From Minisyncoccota bacterium (GTDB lineage: Bacteria; Patescibacteriota; Minisyncoccia; Phycocordibacterales; WO2-35-19): a DNA stretch of 64,000 bases. Below are positions 5,754 to 43,193 of the stretch, one piece after another (within the stretch, counting starts at the first letter, position 1; every line of letters begins with the position of its first letter). The stretch is taken from contig DATDXE010000015.1 in assembly GCA_036517255.1 (NCBI GenBank), positions 14,568-78,567 of the forward strand, in the 5' to 3' direction. The notes under the pieces were generated by a model. It was given only the letters and a program-made list of their open reading frames with translations. It had not been told where the DNA came from and made no database searches. Both the position numbers and the translations under genes were made by a program.

Positions 5754-7025
5754 CTACTTAATAATTTTGAATTCTGGGAGAGGCACTATGAACTTTGATT
5801 TCAGACCCTTTGCCTTCCAATTCTTTATAATATAGTCCGCGAAATGCCAAGCGAGGATAAGCACATAATCGGGCTGCTCTTTGAGTAAGATTTCATTGCT
5901 CACAATTGGATTATGCGTCCCAGGCATGTATTTCCCCACTTTTTCAGTTCCTGGTAATTGAGCGATGTAAGGCAAAAGCGTTTTATCAAGACCAAAATAA
6001 TTTACAACTACCACCCCTCTCGTCGGGCAGGAGTCGGCCACAATTTTCTTACCTTCTTTTTTGGACTTGATAGCCAGTTCAAGAAACTGATGTTTGCTTT
6101 TATTTACTTTTTCTCTAAATTTTGCCCAAGCTTTCGGGTTAAATAACCCTGCTTTTTCTTCAGCTTGAAGTAGTTTTTTCACATTCGGGCTAATTTTGTG
6201 TTTGCCTTTAAATCCAGCATAAACCTTGATGCTGCCTTCGCGAGTCTTCACTCTCCTAGCATCGAAAACTTCCATTCCATAATATGGGAAGAGCTTTACT
6301 AAAGATTTAAGGCTATAAATGCGAACATGTTCATGATATATCTGATCAAATTGATTACCCTCAAACACATCGAGAAGATACTGGCTCTCAGTAACGACCG
6401 CGCCATCCTTATGAAGAAGAGCTTTCAGTCCCCGCATTACTCCACCTAGGCTCGCAACATGAGCAAAGACATTGGTAAATGTAATAATTTCCGCTCGCCC
6501 ATATTTTTTCACCACATCTTTAGCAACTGCTTCATTAAAAAAAGCTTGAATTGTATTAATTTTATTTTCCTTTCGAGCTGTCTTCGCCATATTAGTAGGC
6601 TCAATTCCTAATGTTTTCATCCCTTGCTCGCGAAAATTAGTAAGGAGTGTCCCATCGTTCGACCCTACATCGACACAGAAAGAGCCTTTCTTTAATTTAA
6701 GGTCTTTTGTAATGTCTTCAGTGAGAAGCTTTAAATGCTCACAGAGCGGCTTAGATATGCCAGTTCGATATACATAGTTAGTAGTAGAGAAAAGAAGTTT
6801 AGGATGAACAACATGGTCGAGCTGTCCCAGGCCTGATTCTGGACATATCATGAGACGCAGAGAATACATAGTTTCCGGTTGATTAAGACCTTCGTCAGTT
6901 AACAAAGCTCCGGCACTAGGCTGAAAACCAAGATCGATTGCCTCAAAAAGATTTTTTGACCCGCTGATCTGACAACGGTCCAGTTTACCCACGATAACAT
7001 CGTGATTTGGCTTTTTCATGCCCAA
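5754..7025 (-). CDS. NDP-hexose C-methyltransferase family (TylC3/NovU-like; N-terminal Zn-ribbon-like domain, class I MTase domain, C-terminal C-MT domain)
   Basis: CQISGS...; VDVGSNDGTLL motif I; C-terminal ...GVVVVNYFGLDKT... region typical of sugar C-MTs. It abuts the DegT stop codon. Confidence 0.55.
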   Translation of the reverse strand: MGMKKPNHDVIVGKLDRCQISGSKNLFEAIDLGFQPSAGALLTDEGLNQPETMYSLRLMICPESGLGQLDHVVHPKLLFSTTNYVYRTGISKPLCEHLKLLTEDITKDLKLKKGSFCVDVGSNDGTLLTNFREQGMKTLGIEPTNMAKTARKENKINTIQAFFNEAVAKDVVKKYGRAEIITFTNVFAHVASLGGVMRGLKALLHKDGAVVTESQYLLDVFEGNQFDQIYHEHVRIYSLKSLVKLFPYYGMEVFDARRVKTREGSIKVYAGFKGKHKISPNVKKLLQAEEKAGLFNPKAWAKFREKVNKSKHQFLELAIKSKKEGKKIVADSCPTRGVVVVNYFGLDKTLLPYIAQLPGTEKVGKYMPGTHNPIVSNEILLKEQPDYVLILAWHFADYIIKNWKAKGLKSKFIVPLPEFKIIK

Positions 7026-7088: not shown

Positions 7089-8147
7089 CTATTTCATCAA
7101 GGATTTTAATGGAGTCAACACCAGTCGAAACAGGCGATTTAATACTCTGCCTTCGGGGTAGAAGTGAGCATCATTTTCTTTCTTTCTTTCTTGGAGGCCA
7201 GTGAGAGTGCCCTTGATTACCTCTTCCAAACTTACTTTGGGGGAAAAGCCTATAGATTTGATTTTATCACTATTGATAGTATAGACTTGTTGATTAATTG
7301 TGTTTTCTTTATTTATTTTAACCCGAGCTTTCAGCCCATTCTTTTCAATCTCTTCAACTACATCTTCAAGATTGGTATTAAAAGAAGTTAAGTTGTAAGC
7401 CTGTCCTTTCATTTTACTAATATTTTCCATGGCAAAAATAATCGCGGCCGCTTCATCATTGAGAGCTAAATATGTTTTTGGATTTTTTAAAGCACTTTCA
7501 AAAAGAGTAGTGGTAATGCCATAAATAGATCGGATGCAGAGCATATTAATGATTGTTTCGTAGCGAAAGGCAGGGTTATATCCTACGAGAGTCGCAGAGC
7601 GCAAAGCGCAAGTATTAAAATTCTCGTCATCAAGCTGGAGGATAGCCTTCTCCGCTTCGTATTTCGATATGCCGTAAGTCGAGAGAGGTTCTTTTGGAGC
7701 ATCTTCTTTTAAATCTTCTCCTCTGCTATACATACTGACTGTTGATTGATAAATAAAAGTTTTGACCCCATGCTTTTTACAAACTTCCGCAATCTTAATT
7801 GCTGCAGTTTGATTTACTATAGTACACTCTATATCTTTCCCTTCTCTGTTAGTGGAAAAGGCATCTACTATCGCGGCTAAGTGAATTACCACATCAGGTT
7901 TATATTCAACGAGTACTTTTTCAAATTTTTCATAATCCCTTATATCAGCACTCTCCCAGGCAGTCATCTCCACATTGGGGAATAAATTTAGGAGAGGAGT
8001 GACATTCTCCAATTTACTTTTGGAGAGGTTGTCGTGTATTATTATTTTCGATTGGGGATATTTCCTAGCGAGCATCTTGACCGCGCTATATCCTACATAC
8101 CCCGCCCCACCAGTTACTAATATATTCATACAAGATAATAGTAACAT
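7089..8147 (-). CDS. NAD-dependent epimerase/dehydratase (SDR, sugar-nucleotide modifying)
   Basis: NILVTGGAGYVGYS Rossmann motif; YxxxK (YGISKYEAEK). Confidence 0.65.
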   Translation of the reverse strand: MLLLSCMNILVTGGAGYVGYSAVKMLARKYPQSKIIIHDNLSKSKLENVTPLLNLFPNVEMTAWESADIRDYEKFEKVLVEYKPDVVIHLAAIVDAFSTNREGKDIECTIVNQTAAIKIAEVCKKHGVKTFIYQSTVSMYSRGEDLKEDAPKEPLSTYGISKYEAEKAILQLDDENFNTCALRSATLVGYNPAFRYETIINMLCIRSIYGITTTLFESALKNPKTYLALNDEAAAIIFAMENISKMKGQAYNLTSFNTNLEDVVEEIEKNGLKARVKINKENTINQQVYTINSDKIKSIGFSPKVSLEEVIKGTLTGLQERKKENDAHFYPEGRVLNRLFRLVLTPLKSLMK

Positions 8148-8180
8148 AAATATACCATTAAAACTATAAAATACGCTGGT

Positions 8181-8215
8181 GTTTGTTGTATTGACAATGT
8201 AATTACATCATATAT
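8181..8215 (+). promoter_or_regulatory. Putative TA promoter with operator palindrome
   Basis: TTGACA-17 nt-ATACTT; the perfect palindrome ATGTAATTACAT overlaps the spacer. Confidence 0.35.
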
Positions 8216-8247
8216 ACTTGAGTTCATTAGCATTTTACACAAAACAA

Positions 8248-8520
8248 ATGAACTCCACTTTAAGCATTAGGATTAATAAAAAAATAAAAAAAGAGGCTAT
8301 GAATGTTTTCAGTAAACTTGGCCTTGATATTTCTTCTGGAGTAAAAATATTTCTTAATCAGGTAATTAACACTCGTTCTATCCCCTTCGAACCCAAAATG
8401 CATTATACGATGACTCCAAAACAAGAAAGATGGGTGATCAGACAAGTGAAAGAAGCAAAGAAGAATAGTAAAAGATACACAAGTATAGAAGAGTTACATA
8501 GAGATATTTTGGGTGAATAA
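8248..8520 (+). CDS. dinJ: RelB/DinJ family antitoxin
   Basis: LSIRINKKIKKEAMNVFSKLGLDISSGVKIFLNQVI...IPFEP matches the DinJ ribbon-helix-helix architecture. The start is more likely the internal ATG at 8248 than 8218. Confidence 0.6.
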   Translation: MNSTLSIRINKKIKKEAMNVFSKLGLDISSGVKIFLNQVINTRSIPFEPKMHYTMTPKQERWVIRQVKEAKKNSKRYTSIEELHRDILGE

Positions 8521-8799
8521 ATGCTTAGTGTATTTAGAACAAAAGCATATAGAAAAGCTATCAAAAAATATTCTGGATCTGGGAATTTTAATATTGAAAA
8601 AGTCGAATCTGTAATTAAAACTATTCAAAAAGGAGAAAAATTAGACAAAAAATACAGGAACCATGATTTAACAGGAAAGTACAGAGGAATAATGGAATGT
8701 CATATCAAACCAGATCTATTACTTCTTTATAAAATTGAGAAAGAAAATCTAATATTAATTTTGTTGAACTTAGGCAGTCACTCTGATTTGTTTGGGTAG
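8521..8799 (+). CDS. yafQ: YafQ/RelE family type II toxin (mRNA interferase)
   Basis: KYRNHDLTGKYRGIMECHIKPDLLLLYKI...LGSHSDLF is the YafQ C-terminal consensus. Its ATG immediately follows the antitoxin TAA. Confidence 0.7.
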   Translation: MLSVFRTKAYRKAIKKYSGSGNFNIEKVESVIKTIQKGEKLDKKYRNHDLTGKYRGIMECHIKPDLLLLYKIEKENLILILLNLGSHSDLFG

Positions 8800-8833
8800 T
8801 AGAGCCATATTTCATTAAGTAAATGCCTGGGCT

Positions 8834-8862
8834 TGACTTTTATACATAAAGTATGCTATAAT
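8834..8862 (+). promoter_or_regulatory. Near-consensus sigma70 promoter (TTGACT-17-TGcTATAAT, extended -10)
   Basis: -35 TTGACT 8834-8839; TG 8854-8855; TATAAT 8857-8862. The SD AAGGAGG 8867-8873 follows. Confidence 0.5.
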
Positions 8863-8880
8863 AACCAAGGAGGTAGCCCA

Positions 8881-9201
8881 ATGATATTGCGTGTTGGAAG
8901 TGTAGTGAAGTTCGTCTACAATCCAAGGAACGGCGAGCGGATCACCGACGTCCACTTGGACGGGGAAAATGTGGAGCTGTCATACGGCACCCAGCTTCAT
9001 TTTCACAATGGTTTGGATGTGAGACAGCCTGGGGTAGGTAGCAGTAAGATGTGGGTGCCAATCCCCGAAAACCTGAGGAAGGTGACCTATACGAAAAAAG
9101 ATGACCAAGTCGGCTTCATACCGATCGAGGAACCGGGGACATTCTTTCCGGTTCTGAAAATCGCCGGCGGACTAGCCACGATCATCTCCCTTCCTGAATA
9201 A
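8881..9201 (+). CDS. GC-rich small hypothetical protein (106 aa), foreign codon usage
   Basis: Perfect SD 8 nt upstream of ATG 8881. GC-rich third codon positions contrast with AT-rich neighbours. No recognisable family. Confidence 0.5.
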   Translation: MILRVGSVVKFVYNPRNGERITDVHLDGENVELSYGTQLHFHNGLDVRQPGVGSSKMWVPIPENLRKVTYTKKDDQVGFIPIEEPGTFFPVLKIAGGLATIISLPE

Positions 9202-9212
9202 CACTCAACACG

Positions 9213-9245
9213 GGCCGGTCCTTCGGGACCGGTCTATTCTTTTAT
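9213..9245 (+). terminator. GC hairpin (UUCG tetraloop) followed by a T-rich tract
   Basis: CCGGTCC-TTCG-GGACCGG, then TCTATTCTTTT. Confidence 0.45.
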
Positions 9246-9270
9246 ACATATGTTATGATAATAAAAAATT

Positions 9271-11184
9271 ATGTGTGGCATTGCTGGATATATTGGAAAT
9301 GGAGGCAATAAAGACAAACTAAAGGCAATGGCCAAAGCGTTAGAGAGGCGTGGGCCAGATGATGAGGGGTTTTATGAGACAAGTAGTGAAGGAAAAAAGG
9401 TAGGCTTCGCTTTCAGACGACTTTCTATAATAGATGTAGCAGGAGGTCACCAGCCTATTTCAAACGAAAATGGTGATGTGTGGGTGATGTTAAATGGTGA
9501 AATTTATGACTTCAAGCCTCTGCGAGAAAAACTATTAAATTTGGGGCACCAATTTAAAACTCAATCAGACACAGAAGTTATCGTTCACGCTTACGAAGAG
9601 TGGAGTGAAGAATGTTTTAAAAAATTGGACGGGATGTTCGCCATCGCTATTTGGGACTCGAAAAAGCAAAAGTTGACTCTAGCTCGCGATAGGCTTGGTA
9701 AAAAACCTCTTTATTACACTATTCAAAAAAATACCGGGGAAAGTACAATGTGGTTTGCTTCTGAACTAAAAGCCCTGATTGCGGTGGGTGCTTTCAAAAA
9801 AGAAATTGATCCTGAGTCTTTGAATTTATATTTCAGGACTGAAGCCGTGCCGACCCCTAAAACCATCTTTAAAGAAGTTTATAAATTAGAGCCAGCCACC
9901 TCTCTTTCTTTTGTTGATGGGAAAATAACGAAAAATAAATTCTGGAACTACCCGACAGAAACCATAGAAAACTTAGGCGCAGAAAATGTAGTAGAAGAAT
10001 TAGGAAAAAGGATAGATGAAAGTGTAAGAAAAAGATTGGTTTCTGACGTACCTCTAGGGCTTTTCCTTTCAGGAGGGCTTGATTCAGCGATAGTGGCAGA
10101 AAGCGCAAGTAGACAACACCCAGGGCTAGAAGCTTTCACCCTAGGATTTGAAGACAAAACTTATGACGAAACAGAGAATGCCAAAATAATAGCAAAAACT
10201 TTGGGTCTCAAACATCATATTGAGATTCTTTCAGAAGAAAAAGCTCTGGCCGTTTTAGAAGACGCAATAAATTTACTTGATGAGCCACTCGCTGACCCAT
10301 CTATTTTACCCCAACTTCTACTTTCAAAATTTACTAGAGAAAATGTGACTGTCGCTCTCTCTGGAGATGGAGGCGACGAACTACTCCTCGGTTACCAACA
10401 CATCCCCGCTCATATATGGAGAGAGAGATTGGATTTTCTGCCAGGAGCTTTTTGGAATATGAGTAAGAAAATTTTAAACACAGTGCCATCGGGAAGTGGC
10501 TATTTTAGTTTGGGGTTCAAAACTCAAAGACTTGCTCGCGGGCTTGATTTGGAAAACCGTCTTGAAAGAGATGCGACATGGCGAGGCGCATTTGATCAAG
10601 AAACTTTACAAAAGTTACTAAAGATGACCTTTGGGCTACCGCACCAAGGGTCATCTTTAGTAACTAACGAAGCTGAAAATATTTTAAAAGCTTACGCATC
10701 TGAAACTTCAAATCCTGAGAGTTGGTCAGCATGGAGCTGGGCATATTTAAGAACATTCCTCATGGACGACGTATTGGTGAAAGTAGATAGAGCAACCATG
10801 TGGCACTCTCTCGAAGCCCGCGCCCCACTCTTGGATACGAATGTTGTATCTTTTCTTTTGAGTTTACCCGATGAATACAAATTAGGAAAATACAGAGACA
10901 AAAGATTATTTAAAGAAATACTAAAGAAAAGATTGCCTGAATCTATTTTGAACGCCTCCAAACATGGCTTCGGTGTCCCTATTTCTAAATGGCTAAATGG
11001 GGTTCTAAAAAATAAATTGCTAGAAGTTTCTGACCCAGAATTTCTAAAAAAACAAAATTTATTTGATTCTTCAGCAATAGCAAAATTAATAAAAGAGCAT
11101 GCCGCAGGTGGTAAAGATCGCCGCAAAGAACTTTGGGCCTTTTTATGTTTCCAAATGTGGTACATTAGATGGCACATAAAATAA
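9271..11184 (+). CDS. asnB: Asparagine synthase (glutamine-hydrolysing) family amidotransferase
   Basis: MCGIAGYIG N-terminal Cys nucleophile; SGGLDSA PP-loop; 637 aa. Confidence 0.75.
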   Translation: MCGIAGYIGNGGNKDKLKAMAKALERRGPDDEGFYETSSEGKKVGFAFRRLSIIDVAGGHQPISNENGDVWVMLNGEIYDFKPLREKLLNLGHQFKTQSDTEVIVHAYEEWSEECFKKLDGMFAIAIWDSKKQKLTLARDRLGKKPLYYTIQKNTGESTMWFASELKALIAVGAFKKEIDPESLNLYFRTEAVPTPKTIFKEVYKLEPATSLSFVDGKITKNKFWNYPTETIENLGAENVVEELGKRIDESVRKRLVSDVPLGLFLSGGLDSAIVAESASRQHPGLEAFTLGFEDKTYDETENAKIIAKTLGLKHHIEILSEEKALAVLEDAINLLDEPLADPSILPQLLLSKFTRENVTVALSGDGGDELLLGYQHIPAHIWRERLDFLPGAFWNMSKKILNTVPSGSGYFSLGFKTQRLARGLDLENRLERDATWRGAFDQETLQKLLKMTFGLPHQGSSLVTNEAENILKAYASETSNPESWSAWSWAYLRTFLMDDVLVKVDRATMWHSLEARAPLLDTNVVSFLLSLPDEYKLGKYRDKRLFKEILKKRLPESILNASKHGFGVPISKWLNGVLKNKLLEVSDPEFLKKQNLFDSSAIAKLIKEHAAGGKDRRKELWAFLCFQMWYIRWHIK

Positions 11185-16047: not shown

Positions 16048-16099
16048 TTACAATCACATAATACCAAATCTGCCCTCCAAATGAAGTCTCTCCTCTCCC

Positions 16100-16128
16100 T
16101 TGCAAAATAAGCTGTATTATGCTATAAT
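16100..16128 (+). promoter_or_regulatory. Near-consensus sigma70 promoter (TTGCAA-17-TGcTATAAT)
   Basis: It shares the 13-mer TATGCTATAATAA with the promoter at 8834-8862. The SD AAGGAG lies at 16172-16177. Confidence 0.5.
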
Positions 16129-16188
16129 AATGACTAGATTCTTAAAAATTCGTCCCAATACTGGGACAATACACAAGGAGAAGTATCC

Positions 16189-16593
16189 ATGGAAAATAAA
16201 GACCCGTATATGAACCGGCTAAAGTTGATAGGACCCCGAAAGGTAAAGAGGGGGGACAGGCTCATCGTCCAGACGAGGGGGGGAGGTAGTTTCAGTGGTG
16301 AACGGATCATCACGCTCCTCAAGAACCAAGAGCGGCGAGTCTACCCTCGCATCGGAACAGTGATCAGCTTTGCTGGTCCTGTAGAAGTGATCGGCTCGCG
16401 CGGCAGTGCTGCCGGCGGGGCAAGATCGCCTGGCGGCGTCATCGATGAAAGAATCGCGCGTATCACTAGCCGACAGGTACCTGACAACCCTAAGGAGTCA
16501 GCCCCTTGCCTGGAATTTCTGGGAAGTGGGCTGACACTGTTTCTCCACTTCATCCATCCGGGACAAGTAGCCCGCGTGTTGAAGGCTTCCTAG
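16189..16593 (+). CDS. GC-rich small hypothetical protein (134 aa), Gly/Arg/Ser-rich
   Basis: The ORF spans exactly the GC-rich block. It has an SD, GC-rich wobble positions, and a hairpin terminator downstream. Confidence 0.45.
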   Translation: MENKDPYMNRLKLIGPRKVKRGDRLIVQTRGGGSFSGERIITLLKNQERRVYPRIGTVISFAGPVEVIGSRGSAAGGARSPGGVIDERIARITSRQVPDNPKESAPCLEFLGSGLTLFLHFIHPGQVARVLKAS

Positions 16594-16613
16594 AGCCTCG
16601 CAGTTCCCTCCCC

Positions 16614-16652
16614 GGCCGTGCACACTTCGTGGTGCACGGCCATTTGTTTTGG
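16614..16652 (+). terminator. Intrinsic terminator (10-bp GC palindrome GGCCGTGCAC/GTGCACGGCC plus T-tract)
   Basis: Seen directly in sequence. The loop contains CTTCG. Confidence 0.5.
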
Positions 16653-16667
16653 TATTTTAGATGAGGT

Positions 16668-17312
16668 TTATTTCTGACTTACAAACAGCATCTGCCCTGC
16701 AAAAGGTTTCCAAGGAGAATTTATATAGAATCGGACAATAAATTTAAGTAAGGAATTTGGAATGATGGAAGAATTGGAACGCATAGAGAAAGGCAAAAAA
16801 CACGGCATCTTAAGAATTATTTTCATATCATGAGAGAGTAAGAAGCTTTCCAAAGCGGCATCACTAAAAACTTTTTTATGAGTCGGATCGTCAAAATAAT
16901 TAGCGGGCTGCAAACGGTAATTTGGTTGCATCAAAATTAACTTGCCTCCATTTTTCAAAACCCTCTTCACTTCCCCCATCACTTTCCCTAACTCCTCATC
17001 TGTAAAATGCTCAAATAAGTTACTGGCATGCACTACATCAACCGAAGCCTCCGGAATCAAAGCTAGATCCCAAGCCGGTGCCTTGATCAAGGTAATACCT
17101 GGGGCAGCGTAATTTGAAAGCTCAGGCGAAGTATCAATCGCGTATTTTTTGCTGGCTTTTATATTATTTATAAAATCACAATAACCTGCGCCCAAATCAA
17201 CCACCGTCGCCTCTTCTGGAATGTATTCTGATTCAAACTTAGTAATTTCCTTCCAAACAATGGAACGCCTGGCATCGAAAGTGTACCTGGATTCATAATA
17301 TTTATCTGTCAT
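16668..17312 (-). CDS. Class I SAM-dependent methyltransferase
   Basis: VVDLGAGYCDF motif I. Confidence 0.5.
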   Translation of the reverse strand: MTDKYYESRYTFDARRSIVWKEITKFESEYIPEEATVVDLGAGYCDFINNIKASKKYAIDTSPELSNYAAPGITLIKAPAWDLALIPEASVDVVHASNLFEHFTDEELGKVMGEVKRVLKNGGKLILMQPNYRLQPANYFDDPTHKKVFSDAALESFLLSHDMKIILKMPCFLPFSMRSNSSIIPNSLLKFIVRFYINSPWKPFAGQMLFVSQK

Positions 17313-22564: not shown

Positions 22565-23167
22565 TTGGACAGACCAATCATCGTTTTTGCATGTGACCTC
22601 ACTGAAGGGGGTTGCGAGTTAGGTCCAGAAACCAAAGCTCGTTGCGACGTCGCGACCCAACGAGTTCAAGAGTACAAAAATCGAAGGGAAAAGGGATTTT
22701 TAATCGTCAGTGCTGGCATGAGTGACAAAAGAAAGTACCCTCAACAAGAAAAACTTATGTCAGTCATGATGAGAGACTACCTTGTCTCAATCGGCGTTCC
22801 GTCTGAACAAGTTATCCTCGGTAAACCCGTGTGGGGAAGCCGGGGAGAACTCCAGGAAGCCCTGCGAATAATCCTGGGACGACAAATGTACATTTTCCAT
22901 CCAGCTATCATTTGGAAAGATGGGCGAGGTATAGTGAGAGATGGAGAAGATTTTTGTTTAGGAAGTTGGAGCGAATACCATATAGACATGGTATCTGGCT
23001 GGTACCACAAATGGAGACTCATCTATCTATCAAGAAAAGTCAGAAAGATGATACCTCTATCTCGTCGTAAAGATAAATGGCATATCCAATTCCTAGCAAC
23101 CAAAGGAAGTTTCAAGAGTTTTCTATGGGAACTAATCAAGCTTCCTACGGCTTTAGTTAGAAGATGA
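22565..23167 (+). CDS. DUF218 (YdcF/SanA-like) domain protein; TTG start
   Basis: QEKLMSVMMRDYLVSIGVPSEQVIL...S(R)GE..EA matches the DUF218 core. A TTGACA-17-TAATCT promoter and GGAGG SD lie upstream. Its GC content is moderately elevated. Confidence 0.4.
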   Translation: MDRPIIVFACDLTEGGCELGPETKARCDVATQRVQEYKNRREKGFLIVSAGMSDKRKYPQQEKLMSVMMRDYLVSIGVPSEQVILGKPVWGSRGELQEALRIILGRQMYIFHPAIIWKDGRGIVRDGEDFCLGSWSEYHIDMVSGWYHKWRLIYLSRKVRKMIPLSRRKDKWHIQFLATKGSFKSFLWELIKLPTALVRR

Positions 23168-28923: not shown

Positions 28924-29139
28924 TTAACTTTTGTCCTCTGAATAATTTTCTCCGATATTTCGGGCCACATAGAGCGCACTAAAATAGCGAGGCCTAAGAG
29001 AGACACGACAATGTGACGCATATTTCCAGGTATACCAAGGAATGGAATAACAAAGATAAGCAGGCCAGTTATAGGGTAAAACCTTTTCATTGCACACAGT
29101 ATAATTTCTAAATGACAAAAGGTAAAGCTTTTAAAGTTG

Positions 29140-29167
29140 TTGACTTAAAGAACTACGGCATTATAGT
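29140..29167 (+). promoter_or_regulatory. Sigma70-like promoter TTGACT-16-TATAGT
   Basis: Located inside the longer ORF alternative. It fits a start at ATG 29211, which has an AAAGGA SD. Confidence 0.35.
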
Positions 29168-29210
29168 ACAGAAAGAACGATTACACATTCTAGAGAAAGG
29201 AATAGGTCGA

Positions 29211-29735
29211 ATGGAGCAAGTACCACGCGTAGAAAAGACCAAAGATGGACTTCTGGTCATCCGGCTCCATGAAGTGCTGGTAGACCGAAGTCTTAGTTTC
29301 GAGGAAGCTGTGAGGCTCGGAGCTCCTGGCACAGGAGAGAACTCCTTCGTCTTCTTGTGCGAAGGCCAGTATTCACGAATGAATCAGAGTGAAATCAGGG
29401 AAGCCAGTTTTAGCGATATTTCCCTGCTGTCATTTAGAAGACGTTGGAAAAATAGTGAAGGCATCGAACACCTTGAATCAATCGGGCACAAAGGTGCTTC
29501 GCCCCAAGAAGTTTTGGCCATCGGGGGAAATTTCCCTCGATTAAACCAGAGCATGAGTAATTACGCTCCCCCATCGATGTATGTGACCAGTGTACGTGGT
29601 TGCTTCATCGGTATTCGGAGATGTTTTTTCTGTCTTGCATTCGGAGCAGAGCAGCCGATAGCAGGTCTGACTTCTTCATACGCCGGATGGCATCGAGCCG
29701 ACGAATGGCTCGCAGTCATTGGTAACGTAGAATAG
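29211..29735 (+). CDS. GC-rich hypothetical protein (about 174 aa; 207 aa if it starts at 29112)
   Basis: The GC-rich codon block starts near 29190. No recognisable family; Cys-rich C-terminus. Confidence 0.4.
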   Translation: MEQVPRVEKTKDGLLVIRLHEVLVDRSLSFEEAVRLGAPGTGENSFVFLCEGQYSRMNQSEIREASFSDISLLSFRRRWKNSEGIEHLESIGHKGASPQEVLAIGGNFPRLNQSMSNYAPPSMYVTSVRGCFIGIRRCFFCLAFGAEQPIAGLTSSYAGWHRADEWLAVIGNVE

Positions 29736-30213: not shown

Positions 30214-30413
30214 GAATTTTTCCCAAGAGCGAAGCGATTGGTTGAAAAATTCAGCGTCCAGTTGTATTCAACTGGGAAGAATTTTCCGCTTTTGGTGGGC
30301 TTAAAAAATCTAACATAAAATTTTATAAAAGTTAAATCCCGTGAGAGAGGCTTGTAAGCCTACATCTCACGGGACGAGTGTCATCCCTAATAACCCCCCA
30401 AGGATGGGCACTC

Positions 30414-30740
30414 TTATCGGATACTGCGTGCGGCAGGCTTCTTGCCCGCAAGAGCCCGGCTCACCGCAGCCATACTTCTGTCGAAATTGGGGGGCTTTGG
30501 AGCATACTCAAACGCTCCATAAACTGGCGGTTTCGCCCTGGGCGTCTTCATAGCCAGCTCGTACTTCTTAGCTGACCTGAAGTCAGCTTTGATAGTAGGC
30601 CCAGCGACAAAAGCAACCAAAGCAACCACAACCGCCAAAGTCCCTAACGAAACCAGGCCGCTCACGGTGGGCGTGGCATCAAACATAGCCACAACCAACA
30701 CAAGAAAAACCATAGCAAGAATTCTAAGAAATTTTCCCAT
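30414..30740 (-). CDS. GC-rich small membrane protein (108 aa, 2 TM, basic C-tail)
   Basis: GGAGG SD; two hydrophobic helices; foreign GC-rich codon usage. Confidence 0.4.
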   Translation of the reverse strand: MGKFLRILAMVFLVLVVAMFDATPTVSGLVSLGTLAVVVALVAFVAGPTIKADFRSAKKYELAMKTPRAKPPVYGAFEYAPKPPNFDRSMAAVSRALAGKKPAARSIR

Positions 30741-30764
30741 AGCGAGAAAATCCTCCTGCCCTGT

Positions 30765-30793
30765 ATTATATCATAATCTACTATTAAATGCAA
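30765..30793 (-). promoter_or_regulatory. Consensus-like sigma70 promoter TTGCAT-17-TATAAT (minus strand)
   Basis: Reverse complement of 30765-30793. Confidence 0.45.
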
Positions 30794-30810
30794 GTAAAAA
30801 TTTAGACAGC

Positions 30811-30839: not shown

Positions 30840-31188
30840 GCTCGCCGGTTGGCGAAATAATATTCTTTGTTTTGTTCCGTCCTACTATTTAGTTTTCTGC
30901 TGTCTTTCCAGCTGCCACCCGCCTGTAACGCTATGCTTAGCATTGCGGGCAGGTACCATTTTAAGTTGTGATCAAACTATTGCGCACTCGATCGAGTTGC
31001 ACAATATCGACTGTCATTCCTTTCCTCCGACATAAGTCAGAGAAGAGGAAATTTTCACCTTGAAATATTCCACGAGCAGCTTCCGCTACCCGTGCCTTGT
31101 TACGACTTACTCCCTGTCATTGAGCTTACCTTAGTCCCACTTGCGTGAGCCTTTGGGTACTCCCAACTCCCTTGAGTTGACGGGCGGA

Positions 31189-32075
31189 TTGTGATTTTCT
31201 CACATCCCCTGAAGTATTTAATATAAATACTTCACCATACTGCTTCCCATCATTTCACAGTTTTGGACGTAGCGAGCAGATTTCCTGCACTACGCGAGCC
31301 CGATAGTTTTCAAATTCATTTTTGCTTTTAGCTTCCTGATTCTCTCTAAACCATCTTTAGTAAGATGATCTTTTGATTGAACTAGTTTGGCTACTTTACA
31401 AAATAATTCAAAATTTTTCTGTTTAGAAAAACTCTGAAGAGGATATTGTTTGAAAAATGGGATCAATATTTTAAGAACATCTGAATATGAACTTATGCTG
31501 TATCTATAGCATTGAGCATGGTTAACTCTCTGCTCTTTTTGAAAATACACAGCTCCACATTTCAGAGTATTCTTAACTTTTTCCAGAAGGAATCTATCTT
31601 TCTCCTGCATTTTTATATGAAAATGCAATTGAACATTAAACCCCATTCTGTAGAGAGAAGATTTTCTTACATTTACGTAAAAACATCCTTCTCCATCCGT
31701 TAATCCTACAATATACTCATTTGAAACTATCGGTTTTGTCCTTTCCACACATATTTAATATTATTGTTTTAATTATAACATTAAGTTGACGCATGGTACT
31801 ACGACTCAGCTGACTCCCAGCACTAATTTAGTGCTGGGTCTCCCAGGGTCATTTATAACTCCTTTCCAAACATCCCAACGAAGATTTTTGTTCGTGCTTC
31901 CTTCAGACTCACCGCAGAAGTCGCACATCTCTTTTTTGATCGGGCTACCTTTCGCTACTAGGATCCTTCGGTCCTCACATTACTGTAGGGGACCTACCCG
32001 TTCGCTAAATTGCTTTCGCAACTATCAGACTTTAACTGATTGGATTTATAAACTGCCTGGCGCCTTTAATTTTGA
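31189..32075 (-). mobile_element. Intervening sequence / intron-like insertion in 16S near E. coli position about 1390-1400, carrying a homing endonuclease ORF
   Basis: The conserved TGTACACACCGCCCGT block is split: GTACAAG sits at 32076-32082 and GACGGGCGG at 31180-31188. Confidence 0.65.
31290..31748 (-). CDS. LAGLIDADG homing endonuclease (single-motif)
   Basis: IVGLTDGEGCF dodecapeptide motif; 152 aa; same orientation as the rRNA. Confidence 0.7.
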   Translation of the reverse strand: MERTKPIVSNEYIVGLTDGEGCFYVNVRKSSLYRMGFNVQLHFHIKMQEKDRFLLEKVKNTLKCGAVYFQKEQRVNHAQCYRYSISSYSDVLKILIPFFKQYPLQSFSKQKNFELFCKVAKLVQSKDHLTKDGLERIRKLKAKMNLKTIGLA

Positions 32076-32298
32076 GTACAAGACTTGAGAACGTATTCAC
32101 CGCGGTATAGCTGACCCGCGATTACTAGCGATTCCAACTTCATGGGGTCGAGTTTCAGCCCCCAATCCGAACTGGCGCCACTTTTCTTAGGATTAGCTCA
32201 GTCTTGCGACGTCGCGACCCGTTGTAGTGGCGATTGTATTATGCGTGTAGCCCAAGGCGTCAGAGGGACATGCTGACCTGGCGTCATCCTCGCTTCCT

Positions 32299-32441
32299 CC
32301 CAGCACGAAGTGAACGAAGTTCACTTCAAGTAAAAAGTTCATAAAGTTATAAAGTTTTTAAAGTAAGGAAAATTCTTACTTTATAACTTTACAAACTTTC
32401 AACTCCTTAACTCGAAGTGCGTTCACGCACTTTGTGCTGGG
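32299..32441 (-). other. 16S expansion segment of about 120 nt (V7 region), AT-rich nested palindrome
   Basis: The interval between the GGAGGAAG...GACGTC block and CATGCATCACCTG is about twice the canonical length. Outer stem CCCAGCACGAAGTG/CACTTTGTGCTGGG; inner AAGTTATAAAGT/ACTTTATAACTT. Confidence 0.5.
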
Positions 32442-33792
32442 CAGTCTCGGCTGACACTTGTAACAGCCAACGAGGGTTGCGTTCGTTACCCCACTTAAGG
32501 GAACAACTCAAATCACGAACTGACGACGGCCATGCATCACCTGTTCAAGTGTTCTTGCGAACGTTTACATTTCTGTATTCTTCACTTGAATTTCTAGCCT
32601 TGGTAAGGTTTTTCGTTTGTTGTCGAATTGAACCGCATAATCCACCGCTTGTGCAAGTCCCCGTCTATTCCTTTGAGTTTTAAGCTTGCGCTCGTACTAC
32701 CCAGGCGCCTCTCTTAACGCGTTAGCTTCGCCTCCCAGAGGGTCGATACTCCGGAAAGCTAGAGAGGAACGTTTAGGGCGTAGACTACGCGGGTATCTAA
32801 TCCGCTTCGCTACCTACGCTTTCGTGTTTCAGTGTCAGGAGTGCGCCAGTGAATTGCCTTCGCTTTTGGTGTTCCCCATGATATCAACGGATTTCACCCC
32901 TACTCCATGAGTTCCATTCACCCCTCGCATCCTCAAGCTCTGCCGTTTCTTTCGCATTTCTCCAATTAGGTCGGAGTCTTTAACGAAAGACTAACAGTGC
33001 CACCTACACACCCTTTACGCCCAGTGATTCCGGATAACGCTTGGGGCCTCTGTATTACCGCTCCTGCTGGCACAGAGTTTGGAGCCCCTTATTCATGAGG
33101 TACTATCGTCCCGAAGGATTTCTCCCTCATAAAAGACCTTTACGTCCCGAAGGACTTCATCAGTCACGCGGCGTCGCTCGATCAGGCTTTCGCCCATTGT
33201 CGAATATTCTCGGCTGCAGCCACCCGTAGGTGTATGGACCGTTTCTCAGTTCCATCGGTGGGGGTCAGCCTCTCAGCTCCCCTAAGCGTCATAGCCTTGG
33301 TAAGCCATTACCTTACCAACTAGCTGATACTCCGCAGGCTCTTCCTTAAGCGTCTTGCGACTTTACTCTTACGAGACTATTTGGGATTACCTCCTCTTTC
33401 GAGAAGCTATACCAAACTTAAGGGAAGATACCTACGTGTTACTACCTCGTCTGCCGGTACCTCGGTCTTGCGACCTCGGCCCCTTGACTTGCATGCCTTA
33501 TCCACGCCGCCAGCGTTCATCCTGAGCTAGGATCAAACTCTAAATATAATTAGACGGAACAAAACGAAGAATACTATATCCTGTCATTTCATATTTTCTA
33601 ATTTTTCAGTTTGATCTTCTAACTCAAAAAATCATTGTTTGTGTGTACTTATTTTATTACTCAAAGAAATATAGACTAGGACTTACATCTCAATCTTATA
33701 TATTTCTTATTTCAAGTATGAAAATGTCAAAGACCAATCAAAACTCCCCACGAAGGAGAGCAGGGTAAAGTATAAGGATAAAAATAGGCCTG

Positions 33793-41151: not shown

Positions 41152-41493
41152 CTATTTTTTAGTTTCAGTGGTTGATTTAGCGGCTTGAGCGGCGGAAATT
41201 TCAGCTTCCTTCTTTTTAGCTTCGAGTTCTTTCTGCATTTTACCTCCATGCCTTACGAATTTGCGAGTAGGAGAAAATTCACCCAAACGATGACCTACCA
41301 TATCTTCAGAAATCAAAACTTCTACGTGAACCTTGCCATTGTGAACACCGAAAATGAAACCTACCATTTCAGGAGCGATGACGCAGGCTCGCGACCATGT
41401 TTTAATAACCCCAGTTTCTACAGGTTTCTTGCCCTCGATCTTTTTCAAGACTCGAGGATCAACATATGGGCCTTTTTTCAGTGATCGCGACAT
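41152..41493 (-). CDS. rpsS: 30S ribosomal protein S19 (with K/A/E-rich C-terminal extension)
   Basis: [11 protein letters not shown]... Confidence 0.85.
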
Positions 41494-41588: not shown

Positions 41589-41616
41589 TTGACATTTAGT
41601 TAAATATGAGTAGGGT
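41589..41616 (+). promoter_or_regulatory. Conserved promoter-like element TTGACA-16-TAGGGT (copy 1 of 3)
   Basis: TTGACA 41589-41594; TAGGGT 41611-41616. The shared block TATGAGTAGGGT also occurs in copy 2. Confidence 0.4.
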
Positions 41617-41672
41617 GAGCACCAGAGCCCGTCTCAATAGAAGAGGCGGGACGATCGAAGGAGAGAAAGAAA

Positions 41673-42254
41673 ATGAAAAATACGCGCTGGGCCATTCTGG
41701 CCCTGATTGCGCTGATTTCGCTCACGGTTTCGCCCGTGAGCGCCCTGCCGGTACTTAGTGTGGAGGTCGGCTTCAGCAACCTGCCGCTCGAAGGAGTTGT
41801 GGCGCCGGTGTCACCGGGAGCAACGGGCATCGATTTTTCGAGCCTGATGCAGTCGGCGCCGGGATGCGCCGGGGCCAACATGGCCCTATGCGGCATGGGA
41901 TCGGTCGTTTTCTCAAGCACCGACTTCGACAGTGGCGTCGCGTTCAGCATGATTCTGGGGCCAAGCCTCACGTATACCACAAGCGGACCGTGGAGCGCGG
42001 CCGGCGGACCGGGAGGAAGCTTCAGCATTAGCACGCTCGGGACATACACCGCTGCAGGGTATGACCCCACGGCCGGAAGCATGAACCTGACGTTTCAACC
42101 CCCGCCAGTAGCAGGCAACTATTCGTTTTCGGCAAGCGGCGCCACATCGCCGGTGCCCGAACCGAGTTCAATCATCTTGATGAGCGGCGGCCTCATCGGC
42201 TTCTACTTCATCAACCGGCGTCACCAGTTCCGGCAACACCAGCGGAAAACCTAG
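41673..42254 (+). CDS. Secreted PEP-CTERM domain protein 1 (GC-rich)
   Basis: Sec signal MKNTRWAILALIALISLTVSPVSA. C-terminus PVPEPSSIILMSGGLIGFYFINRRHQ has the PEP motif, a TM helix and an Arg cluster. A GGAG SD is present. Confidence 0.7.
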   Translation: MKNTRWAILALIALISLTVSPVSALPVLSVEVGFSNLPLEGVVAPVSPGATGIDFSSLMQSAPGCAGANMALCGMGSVVFSSTDFDSGVAFSMILGPSLTYTTSGPWSAAGGPGGSFSISTLGTYTAAGYDPTAGSMNLTFQPPPVAGNYSFSASGATSPVPEPSSIILMSGGLIGFYFINRRHQFRQHQRKT

Positions 42255-42283
42255 CGACTTGCGGCAACGCCGGTCGCACAACC

Positions 42284-42318
42284 ATCGGCCCCGAGCAATC
42301 GGGGCTGATTTCTTTTAT
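42284..42318 (+). terminator. Hairpin (GNRA loop GCAA) plus T-tract; near-identical to the one after the second PEP-CTERM gene
   Basis: GCCCCGA-GCAA-TCGGGGC, then TGATTTCTTTT. Confidence 0.5.
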
Positions 42319-42341
42319 AAAAATAAAACTGTTTATAACGT

Positions 42342-42369
42342 TTGACATTGAAGCAAATGTGAGTAGGGT
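42342..42369 (+). promoter_or_regulatory. Conserved promoter-like element TTGACA-16-TAGGGT (copy 2)
   Basis: TTGACATT...TGTGAGTAGGGTAAG. Confidence 0.4.
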
Positions 42370-42432
42370 AAGTTTCAGAGTCGGGCCAATTTATAGGATC
42401 CGACCAAGAACCAAGCAAGGAGAGAGTTAACG

Positions 42433-43077
42433 ATGAAGAAAAATGTTTGTTGGGCCATTCTGGCCCTGATTGCGCTGATCACGCTCACGGTTTCGCCCGT
42501 GAGCGCAACAACGGTGATCGATTTCACCAGCCCAATTTACTCCGGAGCCACCGGAAACACGACCTTCGCCGTCGTCGATCAGGGGATTTTCAACAACCTG
42601 ACGGCAAGCGGCGGGGTCCTGAACTGGACACCCGGGGGCGGACTCGGAATCAACGGGCCAACTTCGCTCGACGATCCGAGCGAAATCGGACTCCTGGAAG
42701 TGCTGGGAGATGGATTGGTTCCACCGCTCATGACCCTTTATGACATCTACCTAGGGGACATCTACACCAGCGAATTTCTGACCGGCACCGAGCAGGCGCA
42801 GTATCGCATCAACGGTGGGGCGTGGATTACCGTGAGCGCAGTCACTCCCACTTCCGGGTCGGGCCTGCTCACGATTTCAGTGAACTTGGACAACGTCTCC
42901 CAGATCGACTTCCGGGCGACGAAGTTGGGTTCCGACTTCAGCGTCCGCGGCTACAGCGCCGAAGTCGTGCCCGAGATGAGTACCATCTTCCTTTCGGGAA
43001 CTGGTCTACTCGGCCTGGGATTGTGGGCTCAGATCAACATCCGGCGCAGGCGGCAACGGGAACAGCAGAAAACCTGA
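42433..43077 (+). CDS. Secreted PEP-CTERM domain protein 2 (GC-rich)
   Basis: Signal MKKNVCWAILALIALITLTVSPVSA is nearly identical to that of protein 1. C-terminus VVPEMSTIFLSGTGLLGLGLWAQINIRRRRQ. Confidence 0.7.
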   Translation: MKKNVCWAILALIALITLTVSPVSATTVIDFTSPIYSGATGNTTFAVVDQGIFNNLTASGGVLNWTPGGGLGINGPTSLDDPSEIGLLEVLGDGLVPPLMTLYDIYLGDIYTSEFLTGTEQAQYRINGGAWITVSAVTPTSGSGLLTISVNLDNVSQIDFRATKLGSDFSVRGYSAEVVPEMSTIFLSGTGLLGLGLWAQINIRRRRQREQQKT

Positions 43078-43107
43078 ACCTTTGCGGCTTGCAAATGCCG
43101 CACAACC

Positions 43108-43141
43108 ATCAGCCCCGAGAAATCGGGGCTGATTTATTTTT
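43108..43141 (+). terminator. Hairpin (GAAA tetraloop) plus T-tract
   Basis: GCCCCGA-GAAA-TCGGGGC, then TGATTTATTTT. Confidence 0.5.
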
Positions 43142-43164
43142 AATCCGCCAGCTGGCGGAACCCC

Positions 43165-43193
43165 TTTACATTTTAAAAAGTTTATGCTAGGGT
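43165..43193 (+). promoter_or_regulatory. Conserved promoter-like element TTTACA-17-TAGGGT (copy 3)
   Basis: TTTACATT...TTATGCTAGGGTCACC. Confidence 0.35.

Follow-up and report, generated by a model that had tools for sequence, protein, structure and literature searches.

The cassette 1 locus

The window analysed here is a 64-kb stretch of DNA from an ultra-small groundwater bacterium of the Ca. Paceibacterota (Parcubacteria, CPR). Its context is chromosomal, with genes for 16S rRNA, tRNA-Ile, ribosomal proteins, EF-G and SecDF together with glycan genes. The unit under study, cassette 1, lies within a glycan locus where the first-pass annotation of this DNA had placed it, between a toxin-antitoxin pair (Pfam RelB and YafQ) upstream and asnB (Pfam Asn_synthase) downstream. 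The surrounding genes match glycosyltransferases, epimerases and methyltransferases in Pfam. The features of the locus, all on the plus strand, are as follows.

8833..8838, +: -35 hexamer TTGACT, in AT-rich DNA of host-like composition
8837..8864, +: left copy of an imperfect direct repeat, CTTTTATACATAAAGTATGCTATAATAA, covering the promoter spacer and -10
8854..8862, +: extended -10 TGcTATAAT (TG 8854-8855, TATAAT 8857-8862)
8865..9238, +: GC-rich insert (Shine-Dalgarno, ORF, terminator stem), GC 0.52, between the repeat copies
8867..8874, +: Shine-Dalgarno (SD) AAGGAGGT, 7 nt from the ATG at 8881
8881..9201, +: 106-codon ORF with TAA stop (NCBI: hypothetical protein VJH67_02815)
8935, +: G>T (GAG>TAG, E19*) in two assemblies, in each 10 nt from a contig end or N gap
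9212..9235, +: predicted terminator hairpin GGGCCGGTCC-UUCG-GGACCGGTCT, 10 bp, UUCG loop closed by C-G
9236..9245, +: T-rich tail ATTCTTTTAT, running into the right repeat copy
9239..9264, +: right copy of the direct repeat, CTTTTATACATATGTTATGATAATAA, aligned to the left copy
9257..9262, +: -10-like GATAAT, 8 nt before the asnB ATG (9271)

The arrangement TTGACT-18-TGcTATAAT scores 11/12 plus the TG and, in a sequence scan of both strands, is the top sigma-70 match of the 64-kb window, which bears out the consensus extended -10 promoter described in the first-pass annotation. Its predicted score equals that of the promoter upstream of the 16S gene. The 9-mer TGcTATAAT recurs before cassette 2 (16120-16128) and, on the minus strand (48626-48618), before a 99-aa ORF that heads a string of ribosomal-protein genes. 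The SD lies 5-12 nt 3' of the -10, which places it at, or close to, the predicted mRNA 5' end, and the stop codon of the ORF lies 10 nt 5' of the hairpin. The terminator was also as claimed, a 10-bp cUUCGg hairpin followed by a T-run. The coordinates originally given for the cassette begin at the -35, and the TTG at 8833 is not a start codon.

Composition and coding status

The ORF has a GC content of 0.508 (GC1/2/3 = 0.56/0.36/0.62). Its GC3 of 0.62 compares with 0.355±0.050 for 61 host ORFs, of which the maximum is 0.48 (z=+5.3), and its synonymous-codon score against the host is z=-5.6. The earlier description of the 106-aa ORF as foreign in its codons survives this comparison, both measures falling more than 5 SD outside the host's normal range. 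High expression fails to explain the deviation in GC3, since verified ribosomal-protein genes and the gene for EF-G have values of only 0.29-0.40. At the level of the DNA, the GC content of the insert is 0.52 against 0.29 in the left flank and 0.40 in the right flank. The three-base periodicity of GC in the ORF is above chance (p=3e-4), which supports a coding ORF. Purine bias at codon position 1 is strong, and the length of the ORF is by itself mildly unusual (p~0.065).

The predicted protein

The product would be a beta-rich protein of 11.8 kDa with a pI of 6.3. It begins MILRVGSVVKF, its N-terminal part is beta-rich, and it carries a hydrophobic C-terminal 17-mer, FFPVLKIAGGLATIISL, and ends ...SLPE. 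Tryptic peptides expected from the sequence include VGSVVK, ITDVHLDGENVELSYGTQLHFHNGLDVR and VTYTK. Among ~15 billion proteins the product finds itself alone, and in a word-indexed search of 5.8 G clusters the self-match was the sole result. A full HMMER search of 1.84 G representatives gave six weak matches, all to long repeat proteins, which were dropped as homologues because their scores were summed over many repeats. Alignment with hhalign to a repeat unit of the InlB B-repeat / Flg_new_2 (PF18998) type covers residues 2-32 only (31 residues, probability 78%) and is a weak lead; PF18998, a domain of ~73 residues, gave no Pfam match, and the HMMER matches are repeat-inflated. The product is unmatched in Pfam, NCBIfam, PHROG and PADLOC, cassette 1 has no match in IMG/VR or in phage and plasmid databases, and the PDB gave one chance-level match only (E=0.074). 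AlphaFold2 run without an alignment returned a pLDDT of 41 and no confident fold.

The earlier statement that the product belongs to no recognisable family is upheld by these searches, which gave no homologue at all, let alone a housekeeping one. The predicted product is a lineage-restricted protein with a hydrophobic C-terminal tail. Our best guess, offered with low confidence, is that it may be a dispensable membrane-associated accessory protein. As neither a donor nor a homologue was found among the ~15 billion proteins, it is composition and signals that argue for a foreign origin.

Insert boundaries and the asnB promoter

The two copies of the direct repeat match at 23 of 28 aligned columns, with three substitutions and one 2-nt gap, a degree of similarity that is significant against random AT-rich pairs (p~8.5e-4) and was reached in 0/20000 shuffles. 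Maximum-likelihood compositional segmentation independently identified a GC-rich block at 8865-9234, which puts it exactly between the repeat copies, the signature of an insertion. The repeat is the putative spacer and -10 of a leaderless-type asnB promoter. The asnB start has no SD before its ATG at 9271 and is therefore classed as leaderless-type; starts of this type are common to 14 of the 61 host genes. Because the flanking repeat corresponds to the spacer and -10 of the asnB promoter, the insert itself is likely to be promoterless, comprising SD, ORF and terminator placed on a native promoter. The promoter DNA has a host-like GC content of 0.29 and the compositional step is abrupt. The first-pass annotation had called the unit a self-contained expression cassette, and promoter, SD, ORF and terminator are indeed all there, but the promoter is native DNA and not foreign. 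Since it is host-like and a copy of a duplicated asnB promoter segment, cassette 1 would have become self-contained only after promoter capture. The insert is transcript-shaped, running from a short 5' UTR with its SD through to the U-tract of an intrinsic terminator. No terminal inverted repeats or attC-like site were found around cassette 1, nor was a second copy of it.

The empty-site junction, if present, would read ...TTGACTTTTATACATA... joined straight to ...ATAATAAAAAATTATGTGTGG. Scans of GTDB genomes and JGI metagenomes based on asnB found no such site, the relatives recovered having at most 36% identity (35-36%) and unrelated contexts, and exact-protein look-ups returned only the same near-clonal population, in which cassette 1 is always present. 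As these scans found no related genome with an empty site, we infer the insertion rather than see it. The divergence of the repeat copies points either to age, which would be odd given the unameliorated GC content, or merely to a 12-nt microhomology.

The DNA of the locus is 100% identical in at least eight contigs from different samples and assemblers, which argues that it is not an assembly artefact, and JGI, ENA, Logan and NCBI assemblies agree to the letter at both junctions of the insert, in contigs as long as 109 kb. A number of short contigs end around cassette 1, at ~8811, 8858, 8944 and 9115. At least 8 of 10 assemblies have the ORF intact, and several gene callers omit it though the DNA is identical. 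The E19* allele is the sole real difference across 3.4-3.9 kb in two otherwise identical assemblies. We have downgraded it as a sign of relaxed selection because contig ends are 10 nt away and other contigs have assembly noise there.

Shine-Dalgarno use in the host

An SD of at least 5 nt precedes 5/5 tested GC-rich ORFs compared with 10/61 host ORFs (Fisher p=3.4e-4), and many host ATGs instead have a -10 box 6-8 nt upstream. The 16S rRNA after helix 45 reads GGAAUAUUUCAAGG and not the canonical GGAUCACCUCCUUA, and a nearby CCUC is buried in a stable hairpin. An anti-SD motif has been reported in only 48% of Parcubacteria (PMC9297842). The host thus appears to translate without SD/anti-SD pairing. 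The perfect SD of the first-pass annotation is certainly there, AAGGAGGT standing 7 nt before the ATG, but in so SD-poor a host it is probably not the driver of translation; with host genes mostly lacking an SD and a 16S without the canonical anti-SD, it is most likely a relic of the donor. The host largely uses neither SDs nor GC-rich codons.

Other GC-rich units in the window

The first-pass annotation counted four similar units in the window; six were found here, with ORFs as follows.

8881-9201: cassette 1
16189-16593: GC-rich unit ORF (cassette 2)
30740-30414, minus strand: GC-rich unit ORF
41673-42254: GC-rich unit ORF
42433-43077: GC-rich unit ORF
43240-43893: GC-rich unit ORF

These units are alike in architecture and composition, as had been proposed, but BLASTP shows that they do not form a sequence family. 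Paralogy among them was rejected except for three PEP-CTERM genes, which are weak paralogues of each other, the remaining units being unrelated. In the canonical bacterial S10 operon rplB and rpsS are adjacent. Here the GC-rich island of three PEP-CTERM genes (41.6-43.9 kb) splits rplB-rpsS, an arrangement confirmed in independent assemblies, and another GC-rich unit lies between the 16S 3' end and tRNA-Ile. Cassette 2 is flanked by a significant direct repeat of 14 nt (p~5e-4) that is off its compositional edges, and the pre-insertion junction rebuilt from this repeat gives a predicted ancestral frame without a tidy stop. No flanking repeats were found at the 30.3-30.8 kb unit or at the PEP-CTERM island.

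A DGR lies ~3 kb beyond the window, and its target gene is GC-rich though its RT is host-like, so that GC-richness in this genome need not always equate to recent transfer. Cassette 1 was rejected as a target of this DGR: at non-A positions the TR matches at most 36/77 anywhere in the window, compared with 74/77 for the true VR. The toxin YafQ cleaves at AAA-A/G codons. The idea that the ORF evades YafQ cleavage was rejected because it holds AAA AAA GAT.

Comparison with known systems

A close likeness is to the morons of phages such as HK97 and HK022 (Juhala/Hendrix, 2000; reviewed in Cumby et al., 2012, PMC3594210). Like a moron, cassette 1 is a single extra gene forming its own transcription unit with a promoter and factor-independent terminator (both predicted here), has a GC content out of keeping with its neighbours (0.52 versus 0.29 and 0.40) and sits amid an otherwise conserved arrangement. 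Moron products are also small, often membrane-associated and non-essential. Cassette 1 differs in lying in a cellular chromosome and not in a phage or prophage, with no matches in PHROG, IMG/VR or phage databases, and in having a promoter that is probably captured host DNA rather than imported. The empty site by which morons are defined can be seen for the sister island at 41.6-43.9 kb, which splits rplB-rpsS, whereas all contigs of the same species carry cassette 1.

Single-gene islets of horizontal transfer and ORFans, including the single-gene transfers of Patescibacteria (PMC12455944), share with cassette 1 an atypical GC3 and codon usage, a short ORF and an absence of homologues. They also share its setting, a polysaccharide locus beside a toxin-antitoxin module, both classic variable regions. 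Atypical ORFans are usually AT-richer than their host, whereas cassette 1 is GC-richer; it differs further in carrying an SD that the host largely ignores and in having junctions readable to the base.

Integron cassettes are likewise promoterless ORF modules expressed from a resident promoter upstream, and several unrelated modules of similar size may occur in one genome. No imperfect 57-141-nt palindrome of the attC kind was seen 3' of the cassette 1 ORF, where the only inverted repeat is the perfect 24-nt hairpin of the terminator. Neither intI nor attI nor an array accompanies the modules, which are scattered and each terminated. Integron insertion does not characteristically leave flanking direct repeats. 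Integrase and recombinase domains were not found in the window ORFs that were of at least 90 aa and scanned or that had Pfam matches in the contig table.

The PEP-CTERM/exosortase substrates encoded at 41.6-43.9 kb share the GC-rich build of cassette 1 with its SD, promoter and terminator, and there is a superficial likeness between the C-terminus of its product (IEEPGT and a hydrophobic stretch) and VPEPGS followed by a TM segment. The product of cassette 1 has neither a signal peptide nor a C-terminal basic tail. It gave no Pfam match to PF07589 at E up to 10, no NCBIfam match to TIGR02595 at E up to 1 and no BLASTP similarity to these proteins.

Origin of cassette 1

We consider it probable that cassette 1 arose by horizontal acquisition, as a moron-like insertion of a single gene into the Ca. 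Paceibacterota chromosome; HGT is known to be frequent in Patescibacteria (PMC12455944). A fragment of ~374 bp from a donor of ~50% GC, bringing an SD, a 106-codon ORF and an intrinsic terminator and no promoter, would, we infer, have landed near the transcription start of the leaderless asnB promoter. Two imperfectly matching copies of a ~28-nt segment of that promoter (spacer and -10) now stand on either side of the insert. The new gene would be driven by the upstream copy and the native -35, and the downstream copy would leave asnB a -10 beyond the new terminator. The predicted transcript begins at ~8867-8870 and ends at ~9242, a monocistronic mRNA of ~375 nt, and the same terminator would be expected to end read-through from relB-yafQ. 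A separate leaderless asnB transcript would begin at ~9269-9271. Cassette 1 looks like an ordinary foreign add-on gene, save that its type of SD does not appear to be used by the genes and 16S rRNA of the host.

The chief alternative is that the insert is inert or decaying foreign DNA, transcribed only by virtue of its promoter and heading for loss, with an ORF that is not a functioning gene. The E19* nonsense allele in two otherwise identical assemblies, a host without an anti-SD to read the SD, an orphan product with no confident predicted fold and the frequent omission of the ORF by gene callers would all fit. Set against these are the intact ORF in at least 8 of 10 assemblies, a codon periodicity that is still strong, the position of the ORF behind the best predicted promoter of the window and the proximity of the nonsense SNP to contig ends, 10 nt away, where other contigs are noisy; we regard this alternative as unlikely. 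A native gene made GC-rich by selection (on amino-acid content, mRNA stability or very high expression) and not by transfer would account for the strong native-type promoter and the failure to find a donor, and the GC-rich DGR target beside a host-like RT offers a parallel. Yet synonymous third positions are also raised in GC (0.62), not positions 1 and 2 alone, native highly expressed genes have a GC3 of 0.29-0.40, the SD goes with GC-rich ORFs and is seldom seen elsewhere, and the composition shifts abruptly at the direct repeats, all of which makes a native origin improbable. That the cassette encodes a structured ncRNA in which the ORF is fortuitous is very improbable indeed. It is a GC-rich island with promoter and terminator in AT-rich DNA, and its ORF is only marginally unusual in length (p~0.065), but its RNA fold shows no excess stability over shuffled sequences (z=-0.86), Rfam covariance models gave no match at gathering score and only chance-level matches at E up to 10, and a tmRNA and tRNA search found nothing. 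The codon periodicity is strong, as is the bias towards purines at codon position 1, the SD is correctly spaced to the ATG, and 10 nt separate the stop codon from the hairpin. The abrupt compositional jump and the short contigs that break within or near the cassette would fit an assembly chimera or contamination by a GC-richer organism; this is scarcely credible, given that both junctions recur unchanged in contigs as long as 109 kb from multiple sources and that the flanking direct repeat and host-type promoter speak for true integration.

Two further proposals concern the units as a group. A dedicated mobile cassette system (integron-like, MITE-like or recombinase-driven) could move SD-ORF-terminator modules and leave short repeats behind. 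It would explain the significant direct repeats flanking cassettes 1 and 2 (p~1e-3 and 5e-4) and why the 64 kb and the DNA beside it contain six to seven similarly built units, some of them within the S10 and rRNA operons. We judge it distinctly doubtful, however, as the repeats differ in sequence and length between cassettes, that of cassette 2 is off its compositional edges, and the cassette 6 unit and the PEP-CTERM island have none; nor are there terminal inverted repeats or an attC-like site, any integrase or transposase among the window ORFs that were of at least 90 aa and scanned or had contig-table Pfam matches, any sequence shared between the cassettes or any second copy of cassette 1. 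A long shot is that in this anti-SD-less CPR bacterium the GC-rich units amount to more than chance HGT debris and make up a separate pool of autonomous add-on genes, one that is actively replenished and enters the genome by some unrecognised mechanism. One version of this would be a retrogene-like capture of foreign mRNA via RT, for which the repeats resemble target-site duplications and the DGR ~3 kb beyond the window might supply the RT. Alternatively, the sigma-70 promoter, SD and GC-rich codons may be tuned for another ribosome, for example that of a GC-richer bacterial host of the episymbiont.

Significance

Taken alone, the single-gene insertion that we favour adds one more compositionally foreign orphan gene to a variable glycan locus. 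It would nevertheless be a clean example of how a foreign gene may gain expression without silencing the gene downstream, the block lying between copies of a native promoter. SD/anti-SD pairing has apparently been given up by the genes and 16S of this organism. The SDs that all GC-rich units keep are therefore a sign of foreign origin that does not depend on composition, and they raise the question of whether SD-led foreign mRNAs are translated by such ribosomes. The sister units split S10 and rRNA operons, which are normally among the most conserved arrangements. If their products are made, these units would be candidates for lineage-specific surface or host-interaction factors of an uncultured episymbiont.

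Elements, composition and coding status of cassette 1

Direct reading of the sequence recovered all of the elements that the first-pass annotation had named at 8834-9245, between relB-yafQ and asnB. They are listed below together with a direct repeat that flanks the GC-rich DNA; the -35 and -10 elements were likewise read from the sequence.

Features of cassette 1
8833-8838, +, -35 element TTGACT, 18-nt spacer to the extended -10
8854-8862, +, extended -10 element TGcTATAAT
8867-8874, +, SD AAGGAGGT, 7 nt ahead of ATG 8881
8881-9201, +, ORF of 106 codons, ATG 8881 to TAA 9199-9201
9212-9235, +, 10-bp hairpin with C(UUCG)G loop, 10 nt past the stop codon, then ATTCTTTTAT
8837-8864, +, direct repeat, left copy CTTTTATACATAAAGTATGCTATAATAA
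9239-9264, +, direct repeat, right copy CTTTTATACATATGTTATG--ATAATAA

When we scanned the two strands over the full length of the window, the predicted promoter was the top sigma-70 match (11/12 plus TG), equalled in quality by the promoter upstream of the 16S rRNA gene, and by itself such a match would not be statistically compelling. The predicted placement relative to SD, ATG and terminator is coherent.

The composition of the ORF was compared with that of 61 long ORFs from the window, in which GC3 averages 0.355±0.050 and does not exceed 0.48. The cassette 1 ORF has a GC of 0.51 (GC1/2/3 = 0.56/0.36/0.62), and its GC3 (z = +5.3) and synonymous-codon score (z = -5.6) bear out the earlier claim of foreign codon usage. 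Verified ribosomal-protein genes and EF-G reach a GC3 of just 0.29-0.40, so high expression fails to account for the deviation. A donor of about 50% GC would fit these values under the relation of genomic GC to GC3 reportedly described by Muto and Osawa. The three GC-rich PEP-CTERM units at 41.6-43.9 kb, with GC3 of 0.65-0.73, fit a GC-richer donor, from which we infer that they and cassette 1 were acquired separately.

For a GC-rich block this short, the length of the ORF is only mildly unusual (p~0.065). The ORF shows a significant three-base period in GC (p=3e-4), and its first codon position is purine-enriched (0.66). The predicted transcript folds no more stably than shuffles (z=-0.86) and Rfam, tRNA and tmRNA models gave zero matches, which rules out a known RNA. 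From the periodicity, the purines, the shuffle-like fold and the lack of a matching RNA model we conclude that the block, as judged from its sequence, is protein-coding in the frame of this ORF, now or until very recently. In several public assemblies (contigs L008, L019 and L020 compared with 8800-9270) the 106-aa ORF was left uncalled despite 100% identical DNA. This is expected of some gene callers given the atypical codon usage, and protein-catalogue counts therefore under-report the product.

Contigs from JGI, ENA, Logan and NCBI are 100% identical at the locus over up to 9.9 kb. This excludes an assembly chimera and shows that the population carrying cassette 1 is near-clonal. Several assemblies are broken inside or beside the cassette. 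The sole real difference in 3.4-3.9 kb is G8935T, which changes Glu19 to TAG in contigs L009 and L011 from two assemblies and occurs in one sample together with the intact allele (L022). In either case the change is only 10 nt away from a contig end or scaffold gap, a setting in which assembly noise is seen in other contigs, and G8935T is therefore graded as just a possible nonsense polymorphism.

Probable insertion at the asnB promoter

The two copies of the direct repeat share 12 consecutive identical bases and match in 23/28 aligned columns, an alignment score equalled by 0.085% of random AT-rich 50-mer pairs from the window and by 0/20,000 shuffles. Two-boundary maximum-likelihood GC segmentation of 8500-9600, which is independent of the repeat, placed the GC-rich block at 8865-9234, exactly the inter-repeat interval; repeat and boundaries plainly coincide. 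The DNA bearing the -35 and -10 elements has a host-like GC of 0.29, which together with the position of the block edges indicates that the foreign piece arrived promoterless. The cassette had been described as self-contained; this stands for the SD, ORF and terminator, which lie within the foreign block, but not for the promoter, which is native. The foreign piece adjoins the -10 of this promoter, and the spacer and -10 are repeated on its far side.

The far-side copy lies 8 nt ahead of the asnB ATG, a start that we take to be set by the N-terminal catalytic Cys (MCGI...) of class-II amidotransferases, and asnB has no SD. A -10-like hexamer 4-12 nt ahead of the start codon, as at asnB, is found in 14/61 host genes with a peak at 6-8 nt; examples are 29112, 37950(-), 48605(-), 60696(-) and 9271. 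A hexamer in this position is a predicted signature of leaderless mRNA, at asnB as elsewhere, and its frequency suggests that such mRNAs may be widespread in the host. On the simplest reading the block would have entered a leaderless asnB promoter close to its +1 position, and we infer that duplication or a microhomology-mediated, Campbell-type integration would then have given each gene one copy of the promoter.

The relB-yafQ pair (8191-8799) has a GC of 0.29, below the 0.40 of the window, and its own near-consensus promoter, TTGACA-16-TATACT. Since there is no terminator between yafQ and cassette 1, the toxin-antitoxin transcript is predicted to end, probably, at the cassette 1 hairpin. Between the two divergent glycan operons, the spacer has the appearance of a hot spot for insertions.

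The product of cassette 1

The earlier view that the product belongs to no recognisable family was upheld. A search of 5.8 billion clusters returned only the protein itself, annotated at NCBI as 'MAG TPA: hypothetical protein VJH67_02815 [Candidatus Paceibacterota bacterium]', and searches of Pfam, NCBIfam, PHROGs, PADLOC, IMG/VR, phage and plasmid sequences gave no significant match; the single PDB match was at chance level (E=0.074). Exhaustive HMMER against 1.84 billion representatives added six weak matches, all to long repeat proteins with summed scores, two of them InlB-B-repeat-like (PF18998). An InlB-B-like repeat unit aligned with residues 2-32 in hhalign (probability 78%), and this apparent similarity is a lead rather than membership. 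AlphaFold2 without an alignment was uninformative (pLDDT 41). The protein is beta-rich with a pI of 6.3, and ends in a hydrophobic 17-mer, FFPVLKIAGGLATIISL (Kyte-Doolittle 1.79), compatible with a predicted tail anchor.

Similar GC-rich units

Four similar units had been proposed. Such units do exist, six in the window and one just outside, and their products are mostly unrelated.

Units other than cassette 1
16189-16593, ORF of cassette 2; promoter 16100-16128, terminator 16614-16641
16068-16081 and 16690-16703, repeat ATCTGCCCT[C/G]CAAA flanking cassette 2, right copy within a methyltransferase 3' end
30335-30800, -, 16S–tRNA-Ile spacer unit (cassette 3); TTGCAT-17-TGaTATAAT, AGGAGG, hairpin terminator
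41673-42254, 42433-43077 and 43240-43893, +, PEP-CTERM genes; TTGACA/TAGGGT-type promoters, AAGGAG-type SDs
About 3 kb past the window end, GC-rich target gene of a diversity-generating retroelement (DGR), the seventh unit

In each unit the GC-rich segment stops at the terminator stem. The products of cassettes 1, 2 and 3 found no homologues other than themselves, and mutual relatedness is confined to the PEP-CTERM trio, where it is weak, although signal peptides are near-identical in two of the genes. The spacer unit encodes a membrane-like protein of 108 aa (30740-30414, -), and no 23S gene follows the tRNA-Ile within the window.

The PEP-CTERM island (41590-43950, +) comprises 2.4 kb of GC-rich DNA with three genes, each with a promoter, SD and GNRA- or GC-hairpin terminator. 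It lies antisense within the S10 operon, between rpsS (41152-41493, -) and rplB (43970-44824, -), in independent JGI and Logan assemblies. As rplB and rpsS are neighbours in the canonical S10-operon order, the island is unambiguously an insertion, which makes the same reading of cassette 1 more credible. The repeat around cassette 2 (14 nt, one mismatch, p~5e-4) does not coincide with its compositional edges, and reconstruction of an ancestral junction from it is not tidy. No flanking repeats were found around the units other than cassettes 1 and 2. With integrase and transposase domains absent among the window ORFs examined, we see a recurring outcome, the addition of genes, and no demonstrable common mobile element.

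Cassette 2 (16048-16703; a 134-aa orphan) runs antisense to the glycan genes on either side of it, both of which are on the minus strand. The first 14 codons of its ORF are AT-rich and the remainder are not, and a hairpin in its 5' UTR (16150-16169) is a terminator when read on the minus strand. Two monocistronic ORFs, 22565-23167 (+) and 29112-29735 (+), of 200 and 207 aa, have moderately raised GC, codon scores near the bottom of the host range, zero Pfam or PADLOC matches and hairpin terminators, one also having a GGAGGTG SD; they may be older acquisitions.

The DGR lies on the same contig past the window end (contig L023 5780-8375; about 64567-67160 in window coordinates). A 209-aa gene carries the VR (6398-6499) at its 3' end, the TR (6830-6931) differs from the VR almost exclusively at TR adenines, and the RT (7278-8375) is host-like (GC3 0.36). 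The target gene has a GC3 of 0.63 and a perfect TTGACA-17-TATAAT promoter. An 881-aa ORF of host-like composition (48633-51278, -), with no Pfam domain, is placed between EF-G (51371-53530) and the 99-aa ORF heading the L3-L4-L23-L2 string. The ribosomal super-operon seems to stop after L5 (37999-38559), adjoining a sugar transferase.

SD sequences and the host 16S rRNA

Host ORFs are preceded by A/T-rich sequence that for the most part has no SD; an SD match of at least 5 nt occurs before 10/61 of these ORFs compared with 5/5 tested GC-rich ORFs (Fisher p=3.4e-4). An insertion of ~885 nt carrying a LAGLIDADG endonuclease ORF (31748-31290, -) splits the 16S rRNA gene (31071-33548, -) close to E. 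coli position ~1400, and the 3' exon of the gene (31187-31071, -) aligns to model positions 1390-1520. The whole-window Rfam 16S match (32034-33548) masks this split. Past helix 45 (31035-31071, -) the gene reads GGAAUAUUUCAAGG in place of GGAUCACCUCCUUA, with no canonical anti-SD in that stretch, and the sole nearby CCUC is inside a stable hairpin downstream (fold z=-4.1). An anti-SD motif was found in just 48% of Parcubacteria, and it was inferred that no SD helix forms in the remainder (Tsurumaki et al., RNA 2022, PMC9297842), the group to which this organism appears to belong. Given this, and the SD-poor host genes, the 'perfect SD' of cassette 1 is probably a remnant from a donor that used SDs. 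Alongside composition, and independently of it, the SD marks the DNA as foreign.

Comparison with known systems

Among known systems cassette 1 comes nearest to the phage 'moron', a gene that has been added between conserved genes, that carries a promoter and terminator of its own and whose GC differs from that of the neighbours (PMC3594210). Cassette 1 would behave alike but is chromosomal and has a captured host promoter; morons proper are defined by an empty-site comparison. More generally, cassette 1 is in keeping with the single-gene transfers and islets described in Patescibacteria (PMC12455944). Tests for an integron cassette, a PEP-CTERM protein or a DGR target were negative.

Overall, the observation made in the first-pass annotation is confirmed and its interpretation supported. 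The most likely explanation, in which our confidence is moderate, is that cassette 1 is a horizontally acquired, moron-like orphan that entered a leaderless asnB promoter at its start site, is expressed from this promoter and is possibly dispensable. The finding is of moderate interest for the base-resolved capture of a promoter, for the presence of SD-bearing foreign genes inside an apparently anti-SD-less host and for the sister insertions within the S10 and rRNA operons.
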